Shown: piece after piece, positions 2,288 through 29,709 of the stretch
Layout: each line of letters opens with the position of its first letter
Numbering within the stretch: position 1 is the stretch's first letter
From: Patescibacteria group bacterium
GTDB taxonomy: Bacteria > Patescibacteriota > Microgenomatia > Levybacterales > UBA12049
DNA: 41,452 nucleotides
Reading direction: 5' to 3'
NCBI GenBank assembly: GCA_023484045.1
Contig: JAMDAA010000036.1
Span: forward strand, 1 to 41,452
Made by a program: the position numbers and the translations under genes
The notes under the pieces: model-generated
The model's database searches: none
Told to the model about the DNA's origin: nothing
What the model saw: the letters and a program-made list of their open reading frames with translations, nothing else

Positions 2288-4042
2288 ATGCCAATCGCAA
2301 AAAAACTGATAATTTCTGAAGTAAAAAAAATCTTAACAGAAATGGGGTTTAATGGTCTAGAACCCATAGTGGAAATTCCCCAAGATTTATCTCACGGCGA
2401 TTACACATCGAATATTGCAATGACAATATTCTCAAAATCAACCCTTCGACTTCGCTCAGGGCAAGATTTCAAATCACCGATGGAATTGGCCGAAAAAATA
2501 GTTCAAAAACTATTAGCCTCGCAAGGCGACGCCCTGCGAGGCAAGATTTTTAAAATAGAAGCTGGAAAACCGGGTTTCATAAATTTTTGGCTTTCGAATG
2601 AGTACTTATTTAATAGTTTGATACAGAGTGATAGACAAAGAGAGAAAGGAGATAAGTCGCTTGACGGTAAGAAGATTCTGGTTGAGTATGCGCACCCCAA
2701 TACGCATAAAGAATTCCATATTGGACATTTAAGAACAGCTGTAATTGGTGAGTCGATATCAAGACTTATTGAATACGAAGCAGGAAAAGTTCTCAGAACT
2801 AATTATCAAGGAGACATTGGGCCACATGTGGCCAAAGCCATCTTTGGCCTAATTCATAATTCAGAATTCATAATTCAGAATGCGGAGCAAAGACCGCTTG
2901 GGGAACGGATTAAATTTCTTGCCCAGGGTTATGCGAAGGGGAATAAGGCGTATGAGGAAAACGACGAAGCCAGAAAAGAAATTCAGGAAATAAATGTCAG
3001 TTTGTATAAGGGAGAGGAAAAATATAAAGAAATCTGGGAAACAACTAGACAATGGAGTTTAGAATATTTTGAAACAATTTATAAAAAGCTCGGTATAAAA
3101 TTTGACAGATTGTTTTTTGAAAGCGAAACATTCCAAAGGGGGAAAGAGATTGTGTTGAAATATTTGGATGGAATCTTCAAAAAAGACCAAGGGGCGATCA
3201 TTTTCAAAGGGGAAGACTATGGACTTCATAACCGCGTTTTTGTCACCTCAGAAGGCTATGCAACATATGAGGGAAAGGAAATGGCCTTGGCCTTTTTGGA
3301 ATATGAAGCATTTCCTTTTGATCTTGCTCTTCACGTCGTCGCGCAAGAACAAGAAGGATATTTTAAAGTCGTTTTTAAGGCGTTGGAATTGATCGACCCC
3401 AAGTTCAAAAATTCCGAGAAACATCTGTCTTACGGGATGGTCGAGCTAAAGACCGGAAAAATGTCGTCAAGGAGCGGAAATATTATAAGCGCTTTTTGGC
3501 TTATCAACGAAGCGAAAAAAAAGATAAAAAAAGAGTTCACAGAAATCGGTGAAGAAGTGGCCGAAAAGGTGGCAGTAGGTGCGGTTAAATACTCGATGTT
3601 AAGATTTGCGAAGAATTCGAATATCAGTTTTTCTTTTGATGAGTCAATAACACTTCAGGGAAATTCTGGGCCATATCTCCAATACACGTACGCTCGCACA
3701 CAAAGTGTGCTAGCTAAAACTCAAAACTCAAAACTAAAAGATCAAACTCAAAACTTAAAGATCAAAACTAAGGACCTAAATCTCGAGGCGGAGGAGGCGG
3801 CGGTTTTGCGTCAGTTAATCCAGTTTGAAGAGGTAGTCAATAGTGCGGCAGAAAACTTTGCCCCAAACTTAATTTGTAATTATATTTTCGATTTAGCCCA
3901 AAAATTTAATCTTTTTTATCAAAAATACCCGATTTTAAAAAGCGAAAAAGAAGAATTCAGACTTATGCTTAATGAAGCAGTCGGAGACAGGCTCAAAGAA
4001 GGCTTAAATCTTCTAGGAATAGAGGCACTCGAAAGAATGTAG
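2288..4042 (+). CDS. argS: Arginine--tRNA ligase
   Basis: HGDYTSN N-domain, GFINF, PNTHKEFHIGHLR (HIGH), KMSSRSG, GPYLQYTYAR and C-terminal LGIEALERM. Confidence 0.98.
   Translation: MPIAKKLIISEVKKILTEMGFNGLEPIVEIPQDLSHGDYTSNIAMTIFSKSTLRLRSGQDFKSPMELAEKIVQKLLASQGDALRGKIFKIEAGKPGFINFWLSNEYLFNSLIQSDRQREKGDKSLDGKKILVEYAHPNTHKEFHIGHLRTAVIGESISRLIEYEAGKVLRTNYQGDIGPHVAKAIFGLIHNSEFIIQNAEQRPLGERIKFLAQGYAKGNKAYEENDEARKEIQEINVSLYKGEEKYKEIWETTRQWSLEYFETIYKKLGIKFDRLFFESETFQRGKEIVLKYLDGIFKKDQGAIIFKGEDYGLHNRVFVTSEGYATYEGKEMALAFLEYEAFPFDLALHVVAQEQEGYFKVVFKALELIDPKFKNSEKHLSYGMVELKTGKMSSRSGNIISAFWLINEAKKKIKKEFTEIGEEVAEKVAVGAVKYSMLRFAKNSNISFSFDESITLQGNSGPYLQYTYARTQSVLAKTQNSKLKDQTQNLKIKTKDLNLEAEEAAVLRQLIQFEEVVNSAAENFAPNLICNYIFDLAQKFNLFYQKYPILKSEKEEFRLMLNEAVGDRLKEGLNLLGIEALERM
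2442..2461. repeat. Small hairpin element in frame within argS
   Basis: CCCT-TCGACTTCGCTC-AGGG; the same TTCGAC..GCTCAG core recurs at 22108-22157. Confidence 0.7.
2516..2542. repeat. Palindromic element in frame within argS
   Basis: GCCTCGCA-A-GGC-GAC-GCC-C-TGCGAGGC; encodes ASQGDALRG. Confidence 0.75.
2851..2881. repeat. 7-nt tandem array inside argS
   Basis: AATTCAT AATTCAG AATTCAT AATTCAG AAT. Confidence 0.85.
3716..3784. repeat. Degenerate 7-nt tandem array inside argS
   Basis: AAAACTC AAAACTC AAAACTA AAAGATC AAACTC AAAACTT AAAGATC AAAACTA AGGACCT AAATCTC. Confidence 0.8.
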
Positions 4043-4685: not shown

Positions 4686-4773
4686 TGTTGTTTCATTAAT
4701 TTACCTTTTGATCTAGTCTCTTGGCAAACGAAAATAAAAGTGGTAGAATGGAACCCTAGATAAAGAATTCTTG

Positions 4774-4883
4774 AAGTAGGAAGTTGGATGTTCTTGAAAT
4801 TGAATATTTGAAGATTTAAACTTTTGATCAAAAGATCAGGATTTAAAGAAATCAAATTCAAATAGTCCAATTTCTAACTCCAA
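4774..4883. repeat. Degenerate inverted 7-nt arrays around a central palindrome
   Basis: AAGTAGG AAGTTGG ... CTTTTGATCAAAAG (perfect 14 bp, 4821-4834) ... TCCAATT TCTAACT CCAA. Confidence 0.5.
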
Positions 4884-4896
4884 AAAATCAGTTAAT

Positions 4897-17834: not shown

Positions 17835-17864
17835 TAAGTAGCTTAAGTTTCTTAAGTTACTTAA
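17835..17864. repeat. 9-nt tandem array upstream of the four-helix-bundle gene
   Basis: TAAGTAGCT TAAGTTTCT TAAGTTACT TAA. Confidence 0.85.
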
Positions 17865-17870
17865 AAGAAG

Positions 17871-18443
17871 ATGTTGCCCAAATATAAATACCTTTTAACC
17901 TACAGGTATTCAGAGATTGTCCATGATTTGACAGTAGAATTTACTAAAAGATTTATTTTGAGCAACTTTAGCAGCTTAGGAGAAAAACCTGACTTTAGGA
18001 CTGCTGATCAGATGAATCAAGCTGCCAGATCTGGTAAGCAAAATATTATTGAGGGAGTTGGGCAAAGCAGGACATCTAAAAAAGGGGAAATAAAGCTTTT
18101 AGGAGTTGCAAATGCTTCTCTAGAAGAATTACTCGCTGATTTTGAAGATTTCTTAAGACAAAGAAAGCTTAAAATATTTCCAAAGACACACTATAAAATA
18201 CAAAACTTTAGAAAAATTGCCTTTCGGTTGACAGCATTAAGTAACTTAAGTCACCTAGGTAACTTAAAAGAAAAGCCAAATTTGCCAAAAAGTCCGGAAG
18301 AAGCCGGAAATTTTCTCCTTACACTTTGTCATCAGGTGACTTATTTGCTTTCGAAACAAATAAAAAGTCTTGAGGAAAAATTTATAAAAGACGGTGGATA
18401 TTCAGAAAACTTGTTTAAAAAGAGACTAAATAGTAAAATATAA
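17871..18443 (+). CDS. Four-helix-bundle protein (23S rRNA IVP/bAvd-like) with suffix domain
   Basis: RTADQMNQAARSGKQNIIEG, ASLEELLADFEDFLRQR, and suffix YLLSKQIKSLEEKFIKDGGYSENL (TIGR04258-like, from memory). Confidence 0.9.
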   Translation: MLPKYKYLLTYRYSEIVHDLTVEFTKRFILSNFSSLGEKPDFRTADQMNQAARSGKQNIIEGVGQSRTSKKGEIKLLGVANASLEELLADFEDFLRQRKLKIFPKTHYKIQNFRKIAFRLTALSNLSHLGNLKEKPNLPKSPEEAGNFLLTLCHQVTYLLSKQIKSLEEKFIKDGGYSENLFKKRLNSKI

Positions 18444-18471
18444 GTCGCCTAAGTTACTTATGTGGCTTAAG
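18441..18471. repeat. 9-nt tandem array between the four-helix-bundle stop and tRNA-Arg
   Basis: TAAGTCGCC TAAGTTACT TATGTGGCT TAAG; the first TAA is the stop codon. Confidence 0.8.
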
Positions 18472-18475
18472 ATTT

Positions 18476-18547
18476 GTCCCCGTAGTTCAACGGATAGAAC
18501 AGACCCGTCCTAAGGGTCCAATGGAGGTCCGACTCCTCTCGGGGACG
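18476..18547 (+). tRNA. tRNA-Arg (CCT)
   Basis: Acceptor GTCCCCG/CGGGGAC, D stem GTTC/GAAC, anticodon arm GACCC-GTCCTAA-GGGTC, T arm GGAGG-TCCGACT-CCTCT, discriminator G. Confidence 0.93.
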
Positions 18548-18566
18548 CTAATGCTTCTCTCGCCAA

Positions 18567-18605
18567 TAAGTAACTTAAGTCACTTAGGAAACTTAAGTTA
18601 CTTAA
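18567..18605. repeat. 9-nt tandem array downstream of tRNA-Arg
   Basis: TAAGTAACT TAAGTCACT TAGGAAACT TAAGTTACT TAA; 28/30 identical to 18238-18267 inside the four-helix-bundle gene. Confidence 0.88.
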
Positions 18606-19428: not shown

Positions 19429-19448
19429 GTGATCGCAAGACCCAAATA

Positions 19449-19523
19449 AATTTTTAATTACTAAATTTCAAAAATTAAAACATTTAGATTTGATTAAAAA
19501 TTTAAAATTTCGAATTTAAAATT
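19449..19523. repeat. AT-rich 7-nt arrays without a gene
   Basis: AATTTTT AATTACT AAATTTC ... AAATTTA AAATTTC GAATTTA AAATT. Confidence 0.55.
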
Positions 19524-21015: not shown

Positions 21016-22034
21016 GGATTGATTTAGGCACTGCTAACACATTAGTTTATCTTGCCGGAGAAGGAATTGTCTTAAACGAACCGACAGTTGTTGCGGTTAC
21101 CGCGGAGGAGGATCGTGTTGTCGCGGTCGGGAAAGAAGCAAAAGAAATGCTCGGAAGAACTCCCGGGAATATCGTGGCGCTTCGACCGATGCAAGACGGA
21201 GTGATCGCAAACTACACGATAACAGAGGCAATGCTCTCATATTTTATCGACAAGGCATGCGGGAGATCGCGATTTTTTAAACCCGAAGTTATGGTTTGTA
21301 TCCCGTCGGGAGTTACTCAAGTCGAAAGACGCGCGGTTTTGGATGCTGCGATGTCTGCAGGCGCAAAAGTTGTTTATTTAATCGAAGAACCGCTTGCTGC
21401 TGCGATCGGCGCTAAAATTCCGATTGCGCAAGCCGCCGGACACATGATCGTTGACACGGGCGGCGGATCAACAGAATCGGCAGTTATATCGCTCGGCGGA
21501 GTTGTTGTTCATAATTCAGTAAGAGTCGCGGGTAACAAAATCGACGAGGCGATCGCAAGTTACATAAAGAAAAAGTATAACCTTTTGGTTGGGGAAAGAA
21601 CAGCAGAAGAAATTAAAATAGAAATCGGAAATGCGTTGATTTTGCTAAGTGATCAGAAAAAAAATGGTAAAGAGGAAGGAGAGCTAAAGAGAATGGAAAT
21701 CAAAGGAAGAGACAGTGTCTTTGGATTACCGCGGACGATCGATCTTAGCGAGCTCCAGATTTGTGAAGCGATAAGACCTGTATTAATGGATATAATAGAT
21801 TCAGTAAAAGGAGTTTTAGAACAAACTCCTCCGGAATTGGCAAGCGACATTATAGACAAAGGAATTGTAATGTCGGGAGGAACCTCCCTTTTAAAAAATT
21901 TTGATAAGCTTATGACGCAAGTGACCGGGGTGCCGTGTCACGTCGCCGAAGATGCACTTTTGTGTGTTGTCCGCGGAACAGGAGTAGCCCTCGAAAACAT
22001 AGAGCTGTACAAAAGAAGCATAAGTAAGAAGTAA
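20997..22034 (+). CDS. mreB: Rod shape-determining protein MreB/Mbl
   Basis: IGIDLGTANT, EPTVVA, EEPLAAAIGA, DTGGGSTE, TPPELASDI; SD AAGGAGG at 20985-20991. Confidence 0.97.
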   Translation: MLSKRIGIDLGTANTLVYLAGEGIVLNEPTVVAVTAEEDRVVAVGKEAKEMLGRTPGNIVALRPMQDGVIANYTITEAMLSYFIDKACGRSRFFKPEVMVCIPSGVTQVERRAVLDAAMSAGAKVVYLIEEPLAAAIGAKIPIAQAAGHMIVDTGGGSTESAVISLGGVVVHNSVRVAGNKIDEAIASYIKKKYNLLVGERTAEEIKIEIGNALILLSDQKKNGKEEGELKRMEIKGRDSVFGLPRTIDLSELQICEAIRPVLMDIIDSVKGVLEQTPPELASDIIDKGIVMSGGTSLLKNFDKLMTQVTGVPCHVAEDALLCVVRGTGVALENIELYKRSISKK

Positions 22035-22176
22035 ACTCAAAGTTCAAATGTCAAATCTCAAATCTACATCTAAAATCTCAAAGTTTGATAAGTTTTAGTT
22101 TTGCGTTTTGACACATTCGACTTTGCTCAGTGTCAATCCTGAGCTTGTCGAAGGATTGATTTTTGCGTTTTGAGCT
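22033..22176. repeat. Gene-less inverted 7-nt cassette with an inserted double hairpin
   Basis: Left arm AAACTCA AAGTTCA AATGTCA AATCTCA...; right arm GTTTTA GTTTTGC GTTTTGA [insert] TTTTTGC GTTTTGA. Confidence 0.8.
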
Positions 22177-26761: not shown

Positions 26762-28231
26762 ATGGATAAAAAGATAAAAGTTTTAATGGTGGGTTACGAA
26801 GCAGACCCTTTTTACAAACACGGAGGATTGGGTGACGTAATCGGTTCTTTGCCAAAAGCGCTTTCCGGTCTTAATGTTGATTGCCGGGTTGTTATTCCTT
26901 ATTACCAGGCGATTAAAGAAAAATTCATTTCTAATGTATTTAATCTTAAAGAAGAAAGAATCGGCGAGTTTTTAATTCATTTTGGAGAAAAAGACGAGCA
27001 AATAGGAATATATAAAAGCGTTCTACCCGGGAGTAATGTAATTATTTATTTTTTAAGCAACAGGAAAAATCTTTCTTACATTAATACGCGCGGTCGTAAC
27101 AAAAAAATTGATCAATTCGCATTTTTTGATCTGGCAGTCAGCCATTTTATTCTATGGCTTCGTAGTAAATCAAAATGGACACCCGCGATAGTCCATTGTA
27201 ACGACTGGCATACGTCTCTTATCCCTTTTATTCTGCAAAAACAAATTAATACTCCGATTCCAACGCTTCTTACGATTCACAATTTTGAATATCAGGGCCG
27301 CGGGTCGATTAAGGTTTTAGACCTATTACATATTAAAGATAAAGATGTGGTTGAGTTTAAAAAAGGAACCCCGGTTACGGAAATAAACATATTAGGAGAA
27401 GGGATTATGGACGCAACGCGAGTTTCGACTGTCTCTCCAAATTACGCAAAAGAAATCATTAACAATAGTAATTGTCATGGGCAAATTTACAGTTATATGC
27501 GAAGAAGGGAAAGAGAAAAGGGTAAAAGCAATTTTCTATCGGGAATTCTTAACGGAATTGATTATAATATTTGGGATTCTAAAAATGACGGATTGATTTA
27601 TCATAGATATGATATATCTGATTGGCAGCTCGGTAAGAAAATCAATAAAGAGGATCTTCTAAAAAGCCTCAATCTTAAAGACAGGCCGACTTTTTGTTTT
27701 ATCGGCCGGATGGCAAAACAAAAAGGAATAGATCTATTAGTAAGAGCGATAAACAGGATTGTAAATCTTGATGTTAATCTTATTTTTCTCGGCGACGGCG
27801 ATTCAAATATTAAAAAAAGTCTGTTTAAAGCGCAGGAAAAATACAAAGATAATATTAGGACAGAATTTTTTTACAGCGAGGAACTTGCCCATAAACTTTA
27901 TGCGAGTTCCGATTTTATTTTGATTCCTTCTCATTTTGAACCTTGCGGTCTTATCCAAATGATCGCGATGCGCTACGGCACTTTGCCGGTCGCGTCCAAA
28001 ACCGGAGGACTTAAAGATTCGATTAAAAATAACAGCACTGGTTTTCTTTTTGAAAAAAATTCAACCCGATCATTAGTTAAAACGATTAGGAAAGCATTAA
28101 GAGTCTATAAATGGAACGAAAAATATCAAAAAATGACTGAAAGAGCGATGAAAACTGATTTTTCCTGGAGGAAAAGTGCCAAAAAATATAAAAAATTGTA
28201 TTTTGAGATCCTTAAGGAAGAATCGATTTGA
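26762..28231 (+). CDS. glgA: Glycogen synthase (GT5)
   Basis: KHGGLGDV (KxGGL), HCNDWHT, TIHN, GILNGID, EPCGLIQMIAMRYG, KTGGL and DFSW. Confidence 0.95.
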   Translation: MDKKIKVLMVGYEADPFYKHGGLGDVIGSLPKALSGLNVDCRVVIPYYQAIKEKFISNVFNLKEERIGEFLIHFGEKDEQIGIYKSVLPGSNVIIYFLSNRKNLSYINTRGRNKKIDQFAFFDLAVSHFILWLRSKSKWTPAIVHCNDWHTSLIPFILQKQINTPIPTLLTIHNFEYQGRGSIKVLDLLHIKDKDVVEFKKGTPVTEINILGEGIMDATRVSTVSPNYAKEIINNSNCHGQIYSYMRRREREKGKSNFLSGILNGIDYNIWDSKNDGLIYHRYDISDWQLGKKINKEDLLKSLNLKDRPTFCFIGRMAKQKGIDLLVRAINRIVNLDVNLIFLGDGDSNIKKSLFKAQEKYKDNIRTEFFYSEELAHKLYASSDFILIPSHFEPCGLIQMIAMRYGTLPVASKTGGLKDSIKNNSTGFLFEKNSTRSLVKTIRKALRVYKWNEKYQKMTERAMKTDFSWRKSAKKYKKLYFEILKEESI

Positions 28232-28281
28232 TTGAATTCTCTTATTGCATTTATTGGGTTTCTATCGTTTAATAGGATTAG

Positions 28282-28686
28282 ATGTCAAATCAAAATTCAA
28301 ATTTCAAAAATCAAAGTCTAGATAAAAAATCAAAGCCAGAAGTTCGGTATCGAGCATTTTATTTGTCGATTGATATCATTAAGTTTCTTGATAAATTAGA
28401 ATATAAACAATCAGTCAAAATAATATCCGATCAGTTGATTCGATGTGTTACCTCAATCGGGGCAAATATTGTAGAAGCAAAATCATCTTCTTCTAAAAGA
28501 GAATTTCTAAATTACTTTCAAATAGCTCTAAAATCCGCAAATGAAGCAAAATATTGGCTTTTTATGTTAAAAGAATTATTCCCCAAGGAAAAAGAAGAAA
28601 TAGATATTTTTCTAAAAGAAGTGGATGAGATTTCAAGAATTATAGGAACAAGTATATTAACGATGAAAGGTAAAAGAAATCTTTAA
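28282..28686 (+). CDS. Four-helix-bundle protein (23S rRNA IVP family)
   Basis: DQLIRCVTSIGANIVEA, SKREF and IALKSANEAKYWL (TIGR02436/PF05635-like, from memory); first 12 codons are a 7-nt array. Confidence 0.93.
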   Translation: MSNQNSNFKNQSLDKKSKPEVRYRAFYLSIDIIKFLDKLEYKQSVKIISDQLIRCVTSIGANIVEAKSSSSKREFLNYFQIALKSANEAKYWLFMLKELFPKEKEEIDIFLKEVDEISRIIGTSILTMKGKRNL

Positions 28687-28699
28687 GCTTTAAACTAGG

Positions 28700-28729
28700 A
28701 TTTGATTTTTGCTTTTTGATTTTTAATTT
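28700..28729. repeat. T-rich 7-nt array closing the four-helix-bundle cassette
   Basis: ATTTGA TTTTTGC TTTTTGA TTTTTAA TTT; roughly complementary to 28282-28319 and 17/18 identical to 22156-22173. Confidence 0.75.
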
Positions 28730-28734
28730 ATTTT

Positions 28735-29709
28735 ATGGCAGAATTTGAATTTCTTCAGAATCCGATTACAAAAAAATGGGTTATATCTGCACCCCGAAGG
28801 GCCAAAAGACCGGATATCGCTAAAGGTTCTGAGCCGCCGTGTCCTTTCTGTGTCGGACGGGAAAAAGACGAAAAAGAAGTTTACAGAATCCCTGCCCGCA
28901 ATGCTAGCGCAAGCGTTGCAGGCGGGGGAGGCAAAGAGGGTGATGCTAATTGGTTGGTTCGAGTAATTCCGAATAAATTCCCTTTTGCGCCGATACACGA
29001 AGTTATAGTCCATTCTCCCGATCATCGCAAAAATTTTGACGAGCTTCCGCTTCCTCATATAGAACTTATTATTAAAACGTATAGACAACGTTTTAACGAG
29101 CATCAAAAAAAAGGACAGGTTTGCATTTTCCATAATCGGGGAGAACGGGGTGGGGAAAGCTTGCCGCATCCTCATACGCAGCTTGCAGTTGTTCCTTTTG
29201 AGGTTAAAATGGAGCTTTCTAGGCTTGATCCGCAAGCTTCTGTAGGCCAAGCCCCGAAAGCTTTGGGAATTTATTCAAATACCTCAGAGAACCAGATAGT
29301 CGAAAGTGAGATGCTGGAAACTCCATGTTTTTACCTTTTTTGTCCTAAAACGAGTCAATGGCCGGATGAAGTCTGGATCGCACCGAAAAGTCGCGGTAGA
29401 TTGTTTGGAGAAATAACAGACGAAGAGATTACAGATTTTGCCTATACCCTTCAAAGGCTTATTCAAATTTTTGATCATCGGCACGGTAACGAATTTCCCT
29501 TTAATTTTTATATTTATCCGGGCGGGGATTGGTATTTAAGGCTTATTCCGCGACAAAAAACAATCGGAGGATTTGAGTTGGTAACCGGAATTTTTGTCAA
29601 CACGCAAAATCCCAAAGAAACTTTAAGCTTTATAAAAGAGCATTTCGAAAAACCCGATATCGAGAAAATAAAACTGCAGCATCAAGCAGAATATTTCAGA
29701 CACGTCTAA
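28735..29709 (+). CDS. galT: GalT-family hexose-1-phosphate nucleotidyltransferase
   Basis: RRAKRP, CPFC, VRVIPNKFP, HEVIV and GESLPHPHTQ (HPH). Substrate cannot be determined from sequence. Confidence 0.85.
   Translation: MAEFEFLQNPITKKWVISAPRRAKRPDIAKGSEPPCPFCVGREKDEKEVYRIPARNASASVAGGGGKEGDANWLVRVIPNKFPFAPIHEVIVHSPDHRKNFDELPLPHIELIIKTYRQRFNEHQKKGQVCIFHNRGERGGESLPHPHTQLAVVPFEVKMELSRLDPQASVGQAPKALGIYSNTSENQIVESEMLETPCFYLFCPKTSQWPDEVWIAPKSRGRLFGEITDEEITDFAYTLQRLIQIFDHRHGNEFPFNFYIYPGGDWYLRLIPRQKTIGGFELVTGIFVNTQNPKETLSFIKEHFEKPDIEKIKLQHQAEYFRHV
28891..28926. repeat. 36-bp palindromic element in frame within the galT-like gene
   Basis: CCTGCCCGCAATGCT-AGCGCA-AGCGTTGCAGGCGGG, encoding PARNASASVAGG. 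Confidence 0.8.

Follow-up and report, generated by a model that had tools for sequence, protein, structure and literature searches.

Cyanobacterial STRRs are grouped with the other 7-nt tandem repeats of bacteria, all of unexplained origin. In the available passages of two papers, the units GGGAATC of Xanthomonas and Nostoc (PMC4692102) and TAACTGA of Beggiatoaceae (PMC4679880) form 7-nt tandem arrays that lie close to start and stop codons and frequently come in inverted pairs, as do the arrays described here; Rehm 2015 noted that four units are preferred and that inverted pairs are numerous (PMC4692102). Neither main text contains 'four helix' or 'intervening', and the link to a gene is not made there. 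For Coxiella, the available text of Warrier 2016 describes heptamers before the S23p gene of a 23S rRNA intervening sequence (IVS) whose stem is near-perfect over 28 bp; RNase III cleaves this IVS in vitro, one of the sites being at the first repeat (PMC4990558). Because of this cutting, some members of the family can be regarded as processed in rRNA. The same source cites a long-standing proposal that the IVS is mobilised by its ORF. Four-helix-bundle (FHB) genes are further reported in cas loci (PMC3936711, in part) and simply listed in the portions available of PMC8700078 and PMC5524665, and the accessible text of a survey of CPR rRNA places the ORF at scattered rRNA sites with repeats unmentioned (bioRxiv 2024.02.27.582315). 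A literature search with most subscription journals outside its scope found no general description of FHB genes with repeats, the Coxiella IVS heptamers being the sole printed case. The cassette reported here joins two open questions, namely the role of the S23p/IVS family and the over-representation of 7-nt tandem repeats in many bacteria.

The stretch of DNA analysed, referred to as the window, comprises 41,452 nt of a Patescibacteria contig (JAMDAA010000036.1, assembly GCA_023484045.1), and its features are collected in Table 1. The host genome, G000, is 900 kb in size, 92% complete and contains 9 FHB genes. Profile searches scored ORF 28282-28686 at 88 bits against TIGR02436 (cut-off 24) and 75 bits against PF05635. 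The first-pass annotation had placed an FHB unit between glgA and galT, and the TIGR02095 (443 bits) and PF01087 matches of the neighbours bear this out. The two arms it described are both real and inverted, and the right one does end 5 nt before galT; they are nevertheless longer than it stated (about 17 codons on the left, not 12), and the right arm, which it put after the stop codon, includes that codon. Aligned across 43 of the 54 clade members, the arms follow one plan of four TCAAA-NN units, a 5-nt phase slip and then one or two further units. At the arms, TRF reported TCAAAAT x3.7 (28290-28315) and TTTGATT x4.1 (28701-28729). Given that G000 yielded 94 period-7 TRF rows against 1, 3 and 2 in three shuffles, and that the flank complementarity of the cassette exceeded all 50 shuffles, the heptad arms are not due to chance. 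Promoters were not enriched directly 5' of the left arm (13 vs 5 vs 8 of 107). A GC-rich palindrome, of a kind often nested in heptad arms (for example at 22115-22155 of the window), also lies in galT at about 28890-28926.

Table 1. Features of the window and their coordinates
Feature	Position	Strand	Remarks
argS solo heptad array, in frame	2850-2881	+	G001: different unit, same place
argS solo array, in frame, with arm-type phase slip	3714-3769	+	G001: equal length, variant units
Gene-less arm pair of another FHB clade	4770-4893	+	just before M16 peptidase start
Second cassette	17835-18605	+	9-nt TAAGTNACY arrays before, inside and after FHB gene
TIGR04258-suffix FHB gene of second cassette	17871-18443		
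tRNA-Arg(CCT)	18476-18548		between downstream 9-nt arrays of second cassette
Gene-less arm element	19445-19522	.	best arm match L152, score 70 vs median 26
Left plus right arm element without gene	22034-22175	+	at mreB stop; GC-rich palindrome (22115-22155) inside right arm
glgA, upstream host gene	26762-28231	+	TIGR02095, 443 bits
FHB gene (TIGR02436/PF05635)	28282-28686	+	ORF of 134 aa
Left arm	28285-28336	+	four TCAAA-NN heptads, 5-nt slip (CTAGA), two more heptads; about 17 codons
Right arm	28681-28729	-	left-arm architecture on opposite strand; includes stop codon; galT ATG 5 nt on
galT-family gene, downstream host gene	28735-29709	+	PF01087; TIGR00209 below cut-off

The AlphaFold model of the FHB protein has four helices (pLDDT 89) and a disordered, arm-encoded N-terminus (residues 1-15, pLDDT below 50). 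Its best structural matches were 2RLD and 2GSC, entries of five chains each, followed by Avd (TM 0.67/0.79), and by homology the protein is probably a homopentamer. Across 62 sequences with identities down to 16%, E65 and E88 never vary and Q51, S58 and N62 hardly do; R54 also belongs to the near-invariant set, and the resulting motif RxxxSxxxNxxE matches that given for the FHB family in the available text of Zhang 2014 (PMC3936711). The features of the TIGR02436/PF05635 family, an HMM score above cut-off, four long helices and this motif, are thus all present. Purifying selection on the protein is strong, with a median dN/dS to clade members of about 0.08 (16 of 34 pairs, the others being saturated). 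Translation leaves out the left arm in 17 of 38 clade members, and the constraint on the arm therefore acts on nucleic acid. PF05635 was the sole domain match of ORF 28282-28686, which has no HUH Y1 domain and, by domain and structure searches, no GIY-YIG nuclease domain; profile and structure searches identified no recognised transposase in the unit. We know of no catalytic activity for the four-helix-bundle fold.

Arms are a general property of these genes. We collected 134 FHB genes, 128 of them with enough flank, and found flank complementarity above all 50 shuffles in 108 of the 128, against 9 of 200 control genes. A first, permissive duplex score had failed to separate FHB genes from controls, and the stricter score was used in its place. 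The gene's own partner arm ranked in the top five for 95 of 128 FHB genes. Cross-complementarity between elements was present in 0.4% of pairs with protein identities under 25% and climbed to 89% of pairs at 65-80%, and units of 7, 8 and 9 nt follow clades in a tree of 119 FHB proteins, many of whose forks are unresolved. A true DGR Avd, encoded beside an RT gene in a relative, has no arms. Across 41 family genomes, whose members are kin and not independent, FHB count (0-20) correlated with matches to the four-heptad pattern (rho 0.79); the 12 FHB-free genomes held 0-5 matches, and the 25 with two or more FHB genes held a median of 20. The reversed heptad pattern was unsuitable as a null, as it matches other heptad families (rho 0.67). 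These genome-level correlations may partly reflect lineages that tolerate all small repeats, and the MAGs are related and incomplete. The second cassette provides a sharper test than the genome-wide heptad correlation: its 9-nt pattern gave 6, 3 and 35 matches in the three genomes that hold the closest proteins (100, 73 and 66%), and of the remaining 38 genomes 36 had none and two had 1-2. Within the gene of that cassette the 9-nt array is in frame, and an Rfam search of the window returned one tRNA and nothing else. Arrays outlast their cognate gene, as G001, a genome of the same genus, has 41 heptad arrays and a single FHB gene of another unit type. RAYT-REP systems have inverted cognate repeats evolving together with their gene and a repeat abundance that tracks it, and both were found here.

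Occupancy of sites by the cassette is patchy. All 17 of the closest GTDB homologues (53-77%) have arms, and their neighbours are all different. The 54 distinct clade proteins, drawn from GTDB and metagenome matches, fall into about 40 flank clusters, a number that short contigs may inflate, and none of the others is at glgA-galT; for close pairs at different loci, DNA similarity is mostly bounded by the arm tips. The first-pass annotation had proposed a search for patchy presence between glgA and galT in relatives. This comparison showed that glgA directly adjoins galT, free of any cassette, in G008 and G061; these are two of six relatives with a true glgA, three others having different neighbours and one being cut by a contig end. 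No FHB gene was found upstream of galT at the 27 of 29 galT loci of relatives with upstream DNA, two being cut off. In G001 (78.9% nucleotide identity) the cassette is missing at all five testable sites of G000, for example on C21, where a 1-nt gap stands opposite 430 nt of G000, and the single cassette of G001 is absent from G000. The glgA-galT junction is an assembly gap in G001 and is not among the five. At Pedobacter nuoF-nuoG, the cassette is present in 3 of the 30 loci examined, out of 59 matched genomes, and a remnant in one. The spacer there ranges from 2 to 760 nt with several unrelated inserts, an insertion hot spot (L320-L349), and the nuoF stop codon comes from the FHB left arm. 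Terminal inverted repeats and patchy insertion, as expected of an insertion sequence or MITE, are therefore both observed. With some 40 contexts, homology that ends at the arms and the five vacant sites in G001, the earlier proposal of a minimal mobile cassette is supported, and its mobility is very likely.

Movement may be ancient or infrequent, because no near-identical cassettes at different loci were found in CPR (the closest pairs have 0.8-0.87 protein identity) and synonymous sites are near saturation between clade members. The Pedobacter FHB copies are vertically inherited. In one groundwater contig pair, a close relative carries the cassette at the same glgA-galT site. Over 27986-28778 of the window, this relative matches at 95-97% identity from 28245 onwards, across the cassette and on into galT, with a glgA 3' end of just 83% identity and a different spacer; a recombination tract that begins just upstream of the cassette is possible in this one low-depth contig pair. 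A joint in one metagenome contig that skips 28309-28701 was considered as an empty allele and rejected, because one of its sides spans just 22 nt. FHB homologues were present in 27 plasmid records. A search of IMG/VR found no relative; two weak phage matches were noted separately. In an Acidobacteria record (L076:138-1560), an FHB cassette lies between CRISPR-like direct repeats and is followed by a second FHB gene.

A Nostoc plasmid module, of which we compared three filled and six empty copies with flanks of about 83-95% identity, allowed a target junction to be inspected. A 430-nt cassette with near-perfect heptad arms replaces 175 nt at this site, and there is no target-site duplication; the CPR pairs, with their 79% identity, have diverged too far for duplication to be judged. 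Two filled versions have the right junction in common and differ at the left, so that the deletion of the target could be secondary. As this is a single site, we only infer replace-type integration.

Arms also occur without the gene. The first-pass annotation had listed 'empty copies' at 22033 and possibly at 4774 and 19449, which are all real elements; gene-less copies are, however, mostly arm-only inserts or relics rather than empty targets. The G001 version of the element at 22034-22175 is 99 nt shorter; 140 nt of that at 4774 (best arm match L137, score 68 vs median 24) and 62 nt of that at 19449 are absent from G001, and for both of these the best-matching arms belong to other FHB clades. 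Solo arrays of three, four and five units numbered 15, 42 and 5, with none longer and 2-7 in all in shuffles; slippage would not yield this distribution, because array lengths peak at four units. Thirty-seven of the 62 lie inside ORFs and six have the 5-nt slip of the arms. Of 43 G000 arrays comparable in G001, 17 represent length gains of at least 21 nt, 14 have an array in G001 as well (seven with another unit), nine face no array at similar length and three are longer in G001. An array was thus kept at the orthologous site in 14 of 43 cases, often with a changed unit, compared with 3 of 298 random sites. The reverse comparison, starting from G001 arrays, gave 0 gains in 27 (p 1e-4). This asymmetry fits recent activity in the FHB-rich G000 and is confounded by the 8 Y1 genes of G000 against none in G001. 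Seven inserts in reading frames, judged by eye, all have lengths that are multiples of three.

Several gene-less arms touch coding sequence. At C15:8186-8289 and C23:1655-1747 of G000, gene-less arm pairs form the starts of genes that have another repeat family in G001; by eye these starts resemble signal peptides, the A-rich arm giving a Lys-rich and the T-rich arm a hydrophobic stretch. A 70-nt gene-less arm pair at C32:57683-57719 of G000, between co-oriented genes, is absent from G001 and bears the unit of the C35 FHB clade present in G000. Even as relics, then, arms reshape host genes at stop and start regions, in in-frame loops (argS) and in apparent signal peptides.

Among 859 ORFs of G000, the genes best bracketed by repeats include FHB, Y1, GIY-YIG and TrpR-like genes, every one of these groups having a repeat type of its own. 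Ssn-like GIY-YIG genes lie at C36:51757 and C38:20015 of G000, which also has RAYT-like Y1 genes, and cognate palindromes accompany them; it is palindromes of this sort that are nested in the heptad arm at 22115-22155 and in galT. The four TrpR-like (PF01371) genes (C22:2395, C9:18629, C32:70310 and C14:20819) have an AT-rich inverted repeat each and are possibly another gene-plus-repeat family.

Given these observations, the reading we favour, with moderate confidence, is a selfish gene-plus-repeat system of the RAYT/REP kind, in which an Avd-like FHB pentamer would recognise its own unit and assist replace-type insertion. The pentamer, predicted by homology, would bind four to five TCAAA cores spaced by free dinucleotides, the substrate being either DNA or a hairpin of both arms. 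Integration would take the form of a replace-type patch, made by the invariant polar site of the FHB protein or by a host or trans-acting enzyme, and arms with or without the FHB gene would be pasted into new DNA sites. Full cassettes would survive mainly at stop/start junctions, and arm-only patches in frame in loops. Pairing of arm RNA would be a side property that lets RNase III cut some copies out of rRNA.

Four other explanations deserve consideration, one of which makes RNA pairing central. The first-pass annotation held that pairing of the arms in mRNA loops out the ORF as in an IVS. In the predicted fold of 28270-28740, the check it had suggested, the arms do pair (with 25 pairs expected within the 471 nt and 12 when the context is 1.2 kb), but the whole unit is no more stable than shuffles (z 0.07). 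G.U and A.C numbered 191 and 181 across 108 elements and 78 and 95 in 43 clade members, that is, without G.U bias. Spacer dinucleotides were complementary in 12% of cases in register vs 24% off register, the sense duplex was the stronger in 20 of 49, and variable columns paired at 41% vs 37% when permuted, a small excess confounded by subclades. Independent copies of a motif on opposite strands would give this pattern of no G.U bias, unpaired spacers and no sense asymmetry. Looping out of the ORF is possible; the G.U counts, spacers and z score lend it no comparative support. We therefore consider it unlikely that the cassette is an IVS of mRNA, with arms that pair in the transcript so that RNase III removes the FHB segment and the flanking operon mRNAs stay usable. 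The Coxiella 23S IVS, whose S23p gene and heptamers accompany cutting in vitro (PMC4990558, available text), speaks for it; G000 encodes RNase III, the gene downstream of the cassette is co-oriented in 91 of 111 cases, and the Nostoc arms are near-perfectly complementary. The predicted arm duplex of -22 kcal/mol is nonetheless interrupted by periodic internal loops, with a longest run of 11 bp against the 28 bp of the Coxiella stem. Single arms inside genes and clade-specific units would also be left unexplained.

Somewhat less probable still is a minimal retro-element, in which an Avd-like pentamer binds its own transcript through the arms and lends it to an RT acting in trans, with solo arrays as cDNA patches. 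The fold is common to FHB and Avd, Avd is an obligatory RT cofactor over which RNA lies (bioRxiv 2023.10.23.563531, in the text available), and short overwriting patches fit cDNA integration; RT genes were found in 11 of 29 FHB-positive and 1 of 12 FHB-negative genomes (p 0.07). No RT (PF00078) was detected, however, in G000, G001, G010 (20 FHB genes) or G061 (13 FHB genes), MAGs that are 83-92% complete, the sole true DGR Avd observed is armless, and sense-strand asymmetry is absent. To the same low degree we credit a domesticated regulator, a TRAP-like ring that tunes translation by binding repeats close to start and stop codons, with patchiness due to transfer and loss and arrays due to slippage. 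The four-unit peak is unlike slippage, whole arm pairs of 62-140 nt appear as blocks, neighbours have no common function and copy number varies from 0 to 20 within one family. What speaks for regulation is the strong purifying selection, the end of the right arm at -30 to +20 nt of the next ATG in 57 of 73 cases, the retention of arrays with changed units at orthologous sites, and such a role proposed for TAACTGA repeats in the available text of MacGregor 2015. It is very improbable that FHB is mere cargo, moved as a passenger by RAYT-like Y1 or Ssn-like GIY-YIG enzymes of the same genomes. Y1 transposases do co-vary with FHB (present in 16 of the 29 FHB-positive genomes and in 1 of the 12 FHB-negative ones, p 0.006), G000 has 8 of them, and palindromes are often nested in arms, yet 13 of the 29 FHB-positive genomes have no Y1 match, the repeats that accompany the Y1 and GIY-YIG genes are GC-rich palindromes of their own and not heptads, and the unit follows the FHB clade.

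The RAYT/REP-like reading can be extended to a generalisation that is possible and that we regard as rather doubtful. FHB pentamers would act as the mobilising enzymes for minimal elements of a new class, with each clade reading its own unit and writing patches of four to five copies of its own 7-9-nt unit, arm pairs or cassettes over target DNA without duplication. Bacterial heptamer repeats, among them the cyanobacterial STRRs, would then share this origin with ORF-bearing rRNA IVSs and with newly arisen in-frame loops and signal peptides. If FHB does move or write repeats, it would be a repeat-specific DNA-patching agent of 120 residues whose fold is that of no known transposase or nuclease. 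The link between gene and repeat can be tested, as there are carriers in culture and two structures have been solved.

Compared with known systems, the cassette resembles the helix-45 IVS of Coxiella, called selfish in the available text (PMC4990558), in its protein family, in the inverted repeats at its ends and in the heptamers that immediately precede the ORF. It differs in lying between protein genes, glgA and galT, and not in an rRNA helix, in having arms with free spacer bases rather than a near-perfect 28-bp stem, and in its many clades, each with its own unit and gene-less copies genome-wide. The earlier notion that the gene-less copies, the argS arrays and the 9-nt variant form one undescribed system with it is supported, with the caveat that the Coxiella IVS heptamers are in print. 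With DGR Avd (background in the available part of PMC6182149) it has the FHB fold and a probable pentameric barrel in common at 12% identity, whereas a DGR has an RT gene with template and variable repeats, and here there is no RT (no PF00078 match in the 92% complete G000), TR or VR. Ssn with its SRM/NTS hairpins is likewise a small single-domain gene between its own repeats, with an IS-like layout and many cognate pairs across phyla (PMC11893778, available text); FHB lacks the GIY-YIG fold. In RAYT-REP/BIME, too, inverted cognate repeats flank the gene and co-evolve with it, and repeat abundance tracks the gene (PMC2817692, available text), in contrast to the tandem 7-9-nt units found here in place of GC-rich palindromes, and with no HUH/Y1 domain. 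By its defining features the cassette is thus not an rRNA IVS, by location, nor a RAYT, an Ssn, an insertion sequence (no transposase, no duplication) or a DGR. It works like RAYT-REP and has its gene-plus-heptamer layout in common with the Coxiella IVS. The FHB-heptad system stands beside RAYT-REP and Ssn-SRM as a parallel system of a gene with its cognate repeat.
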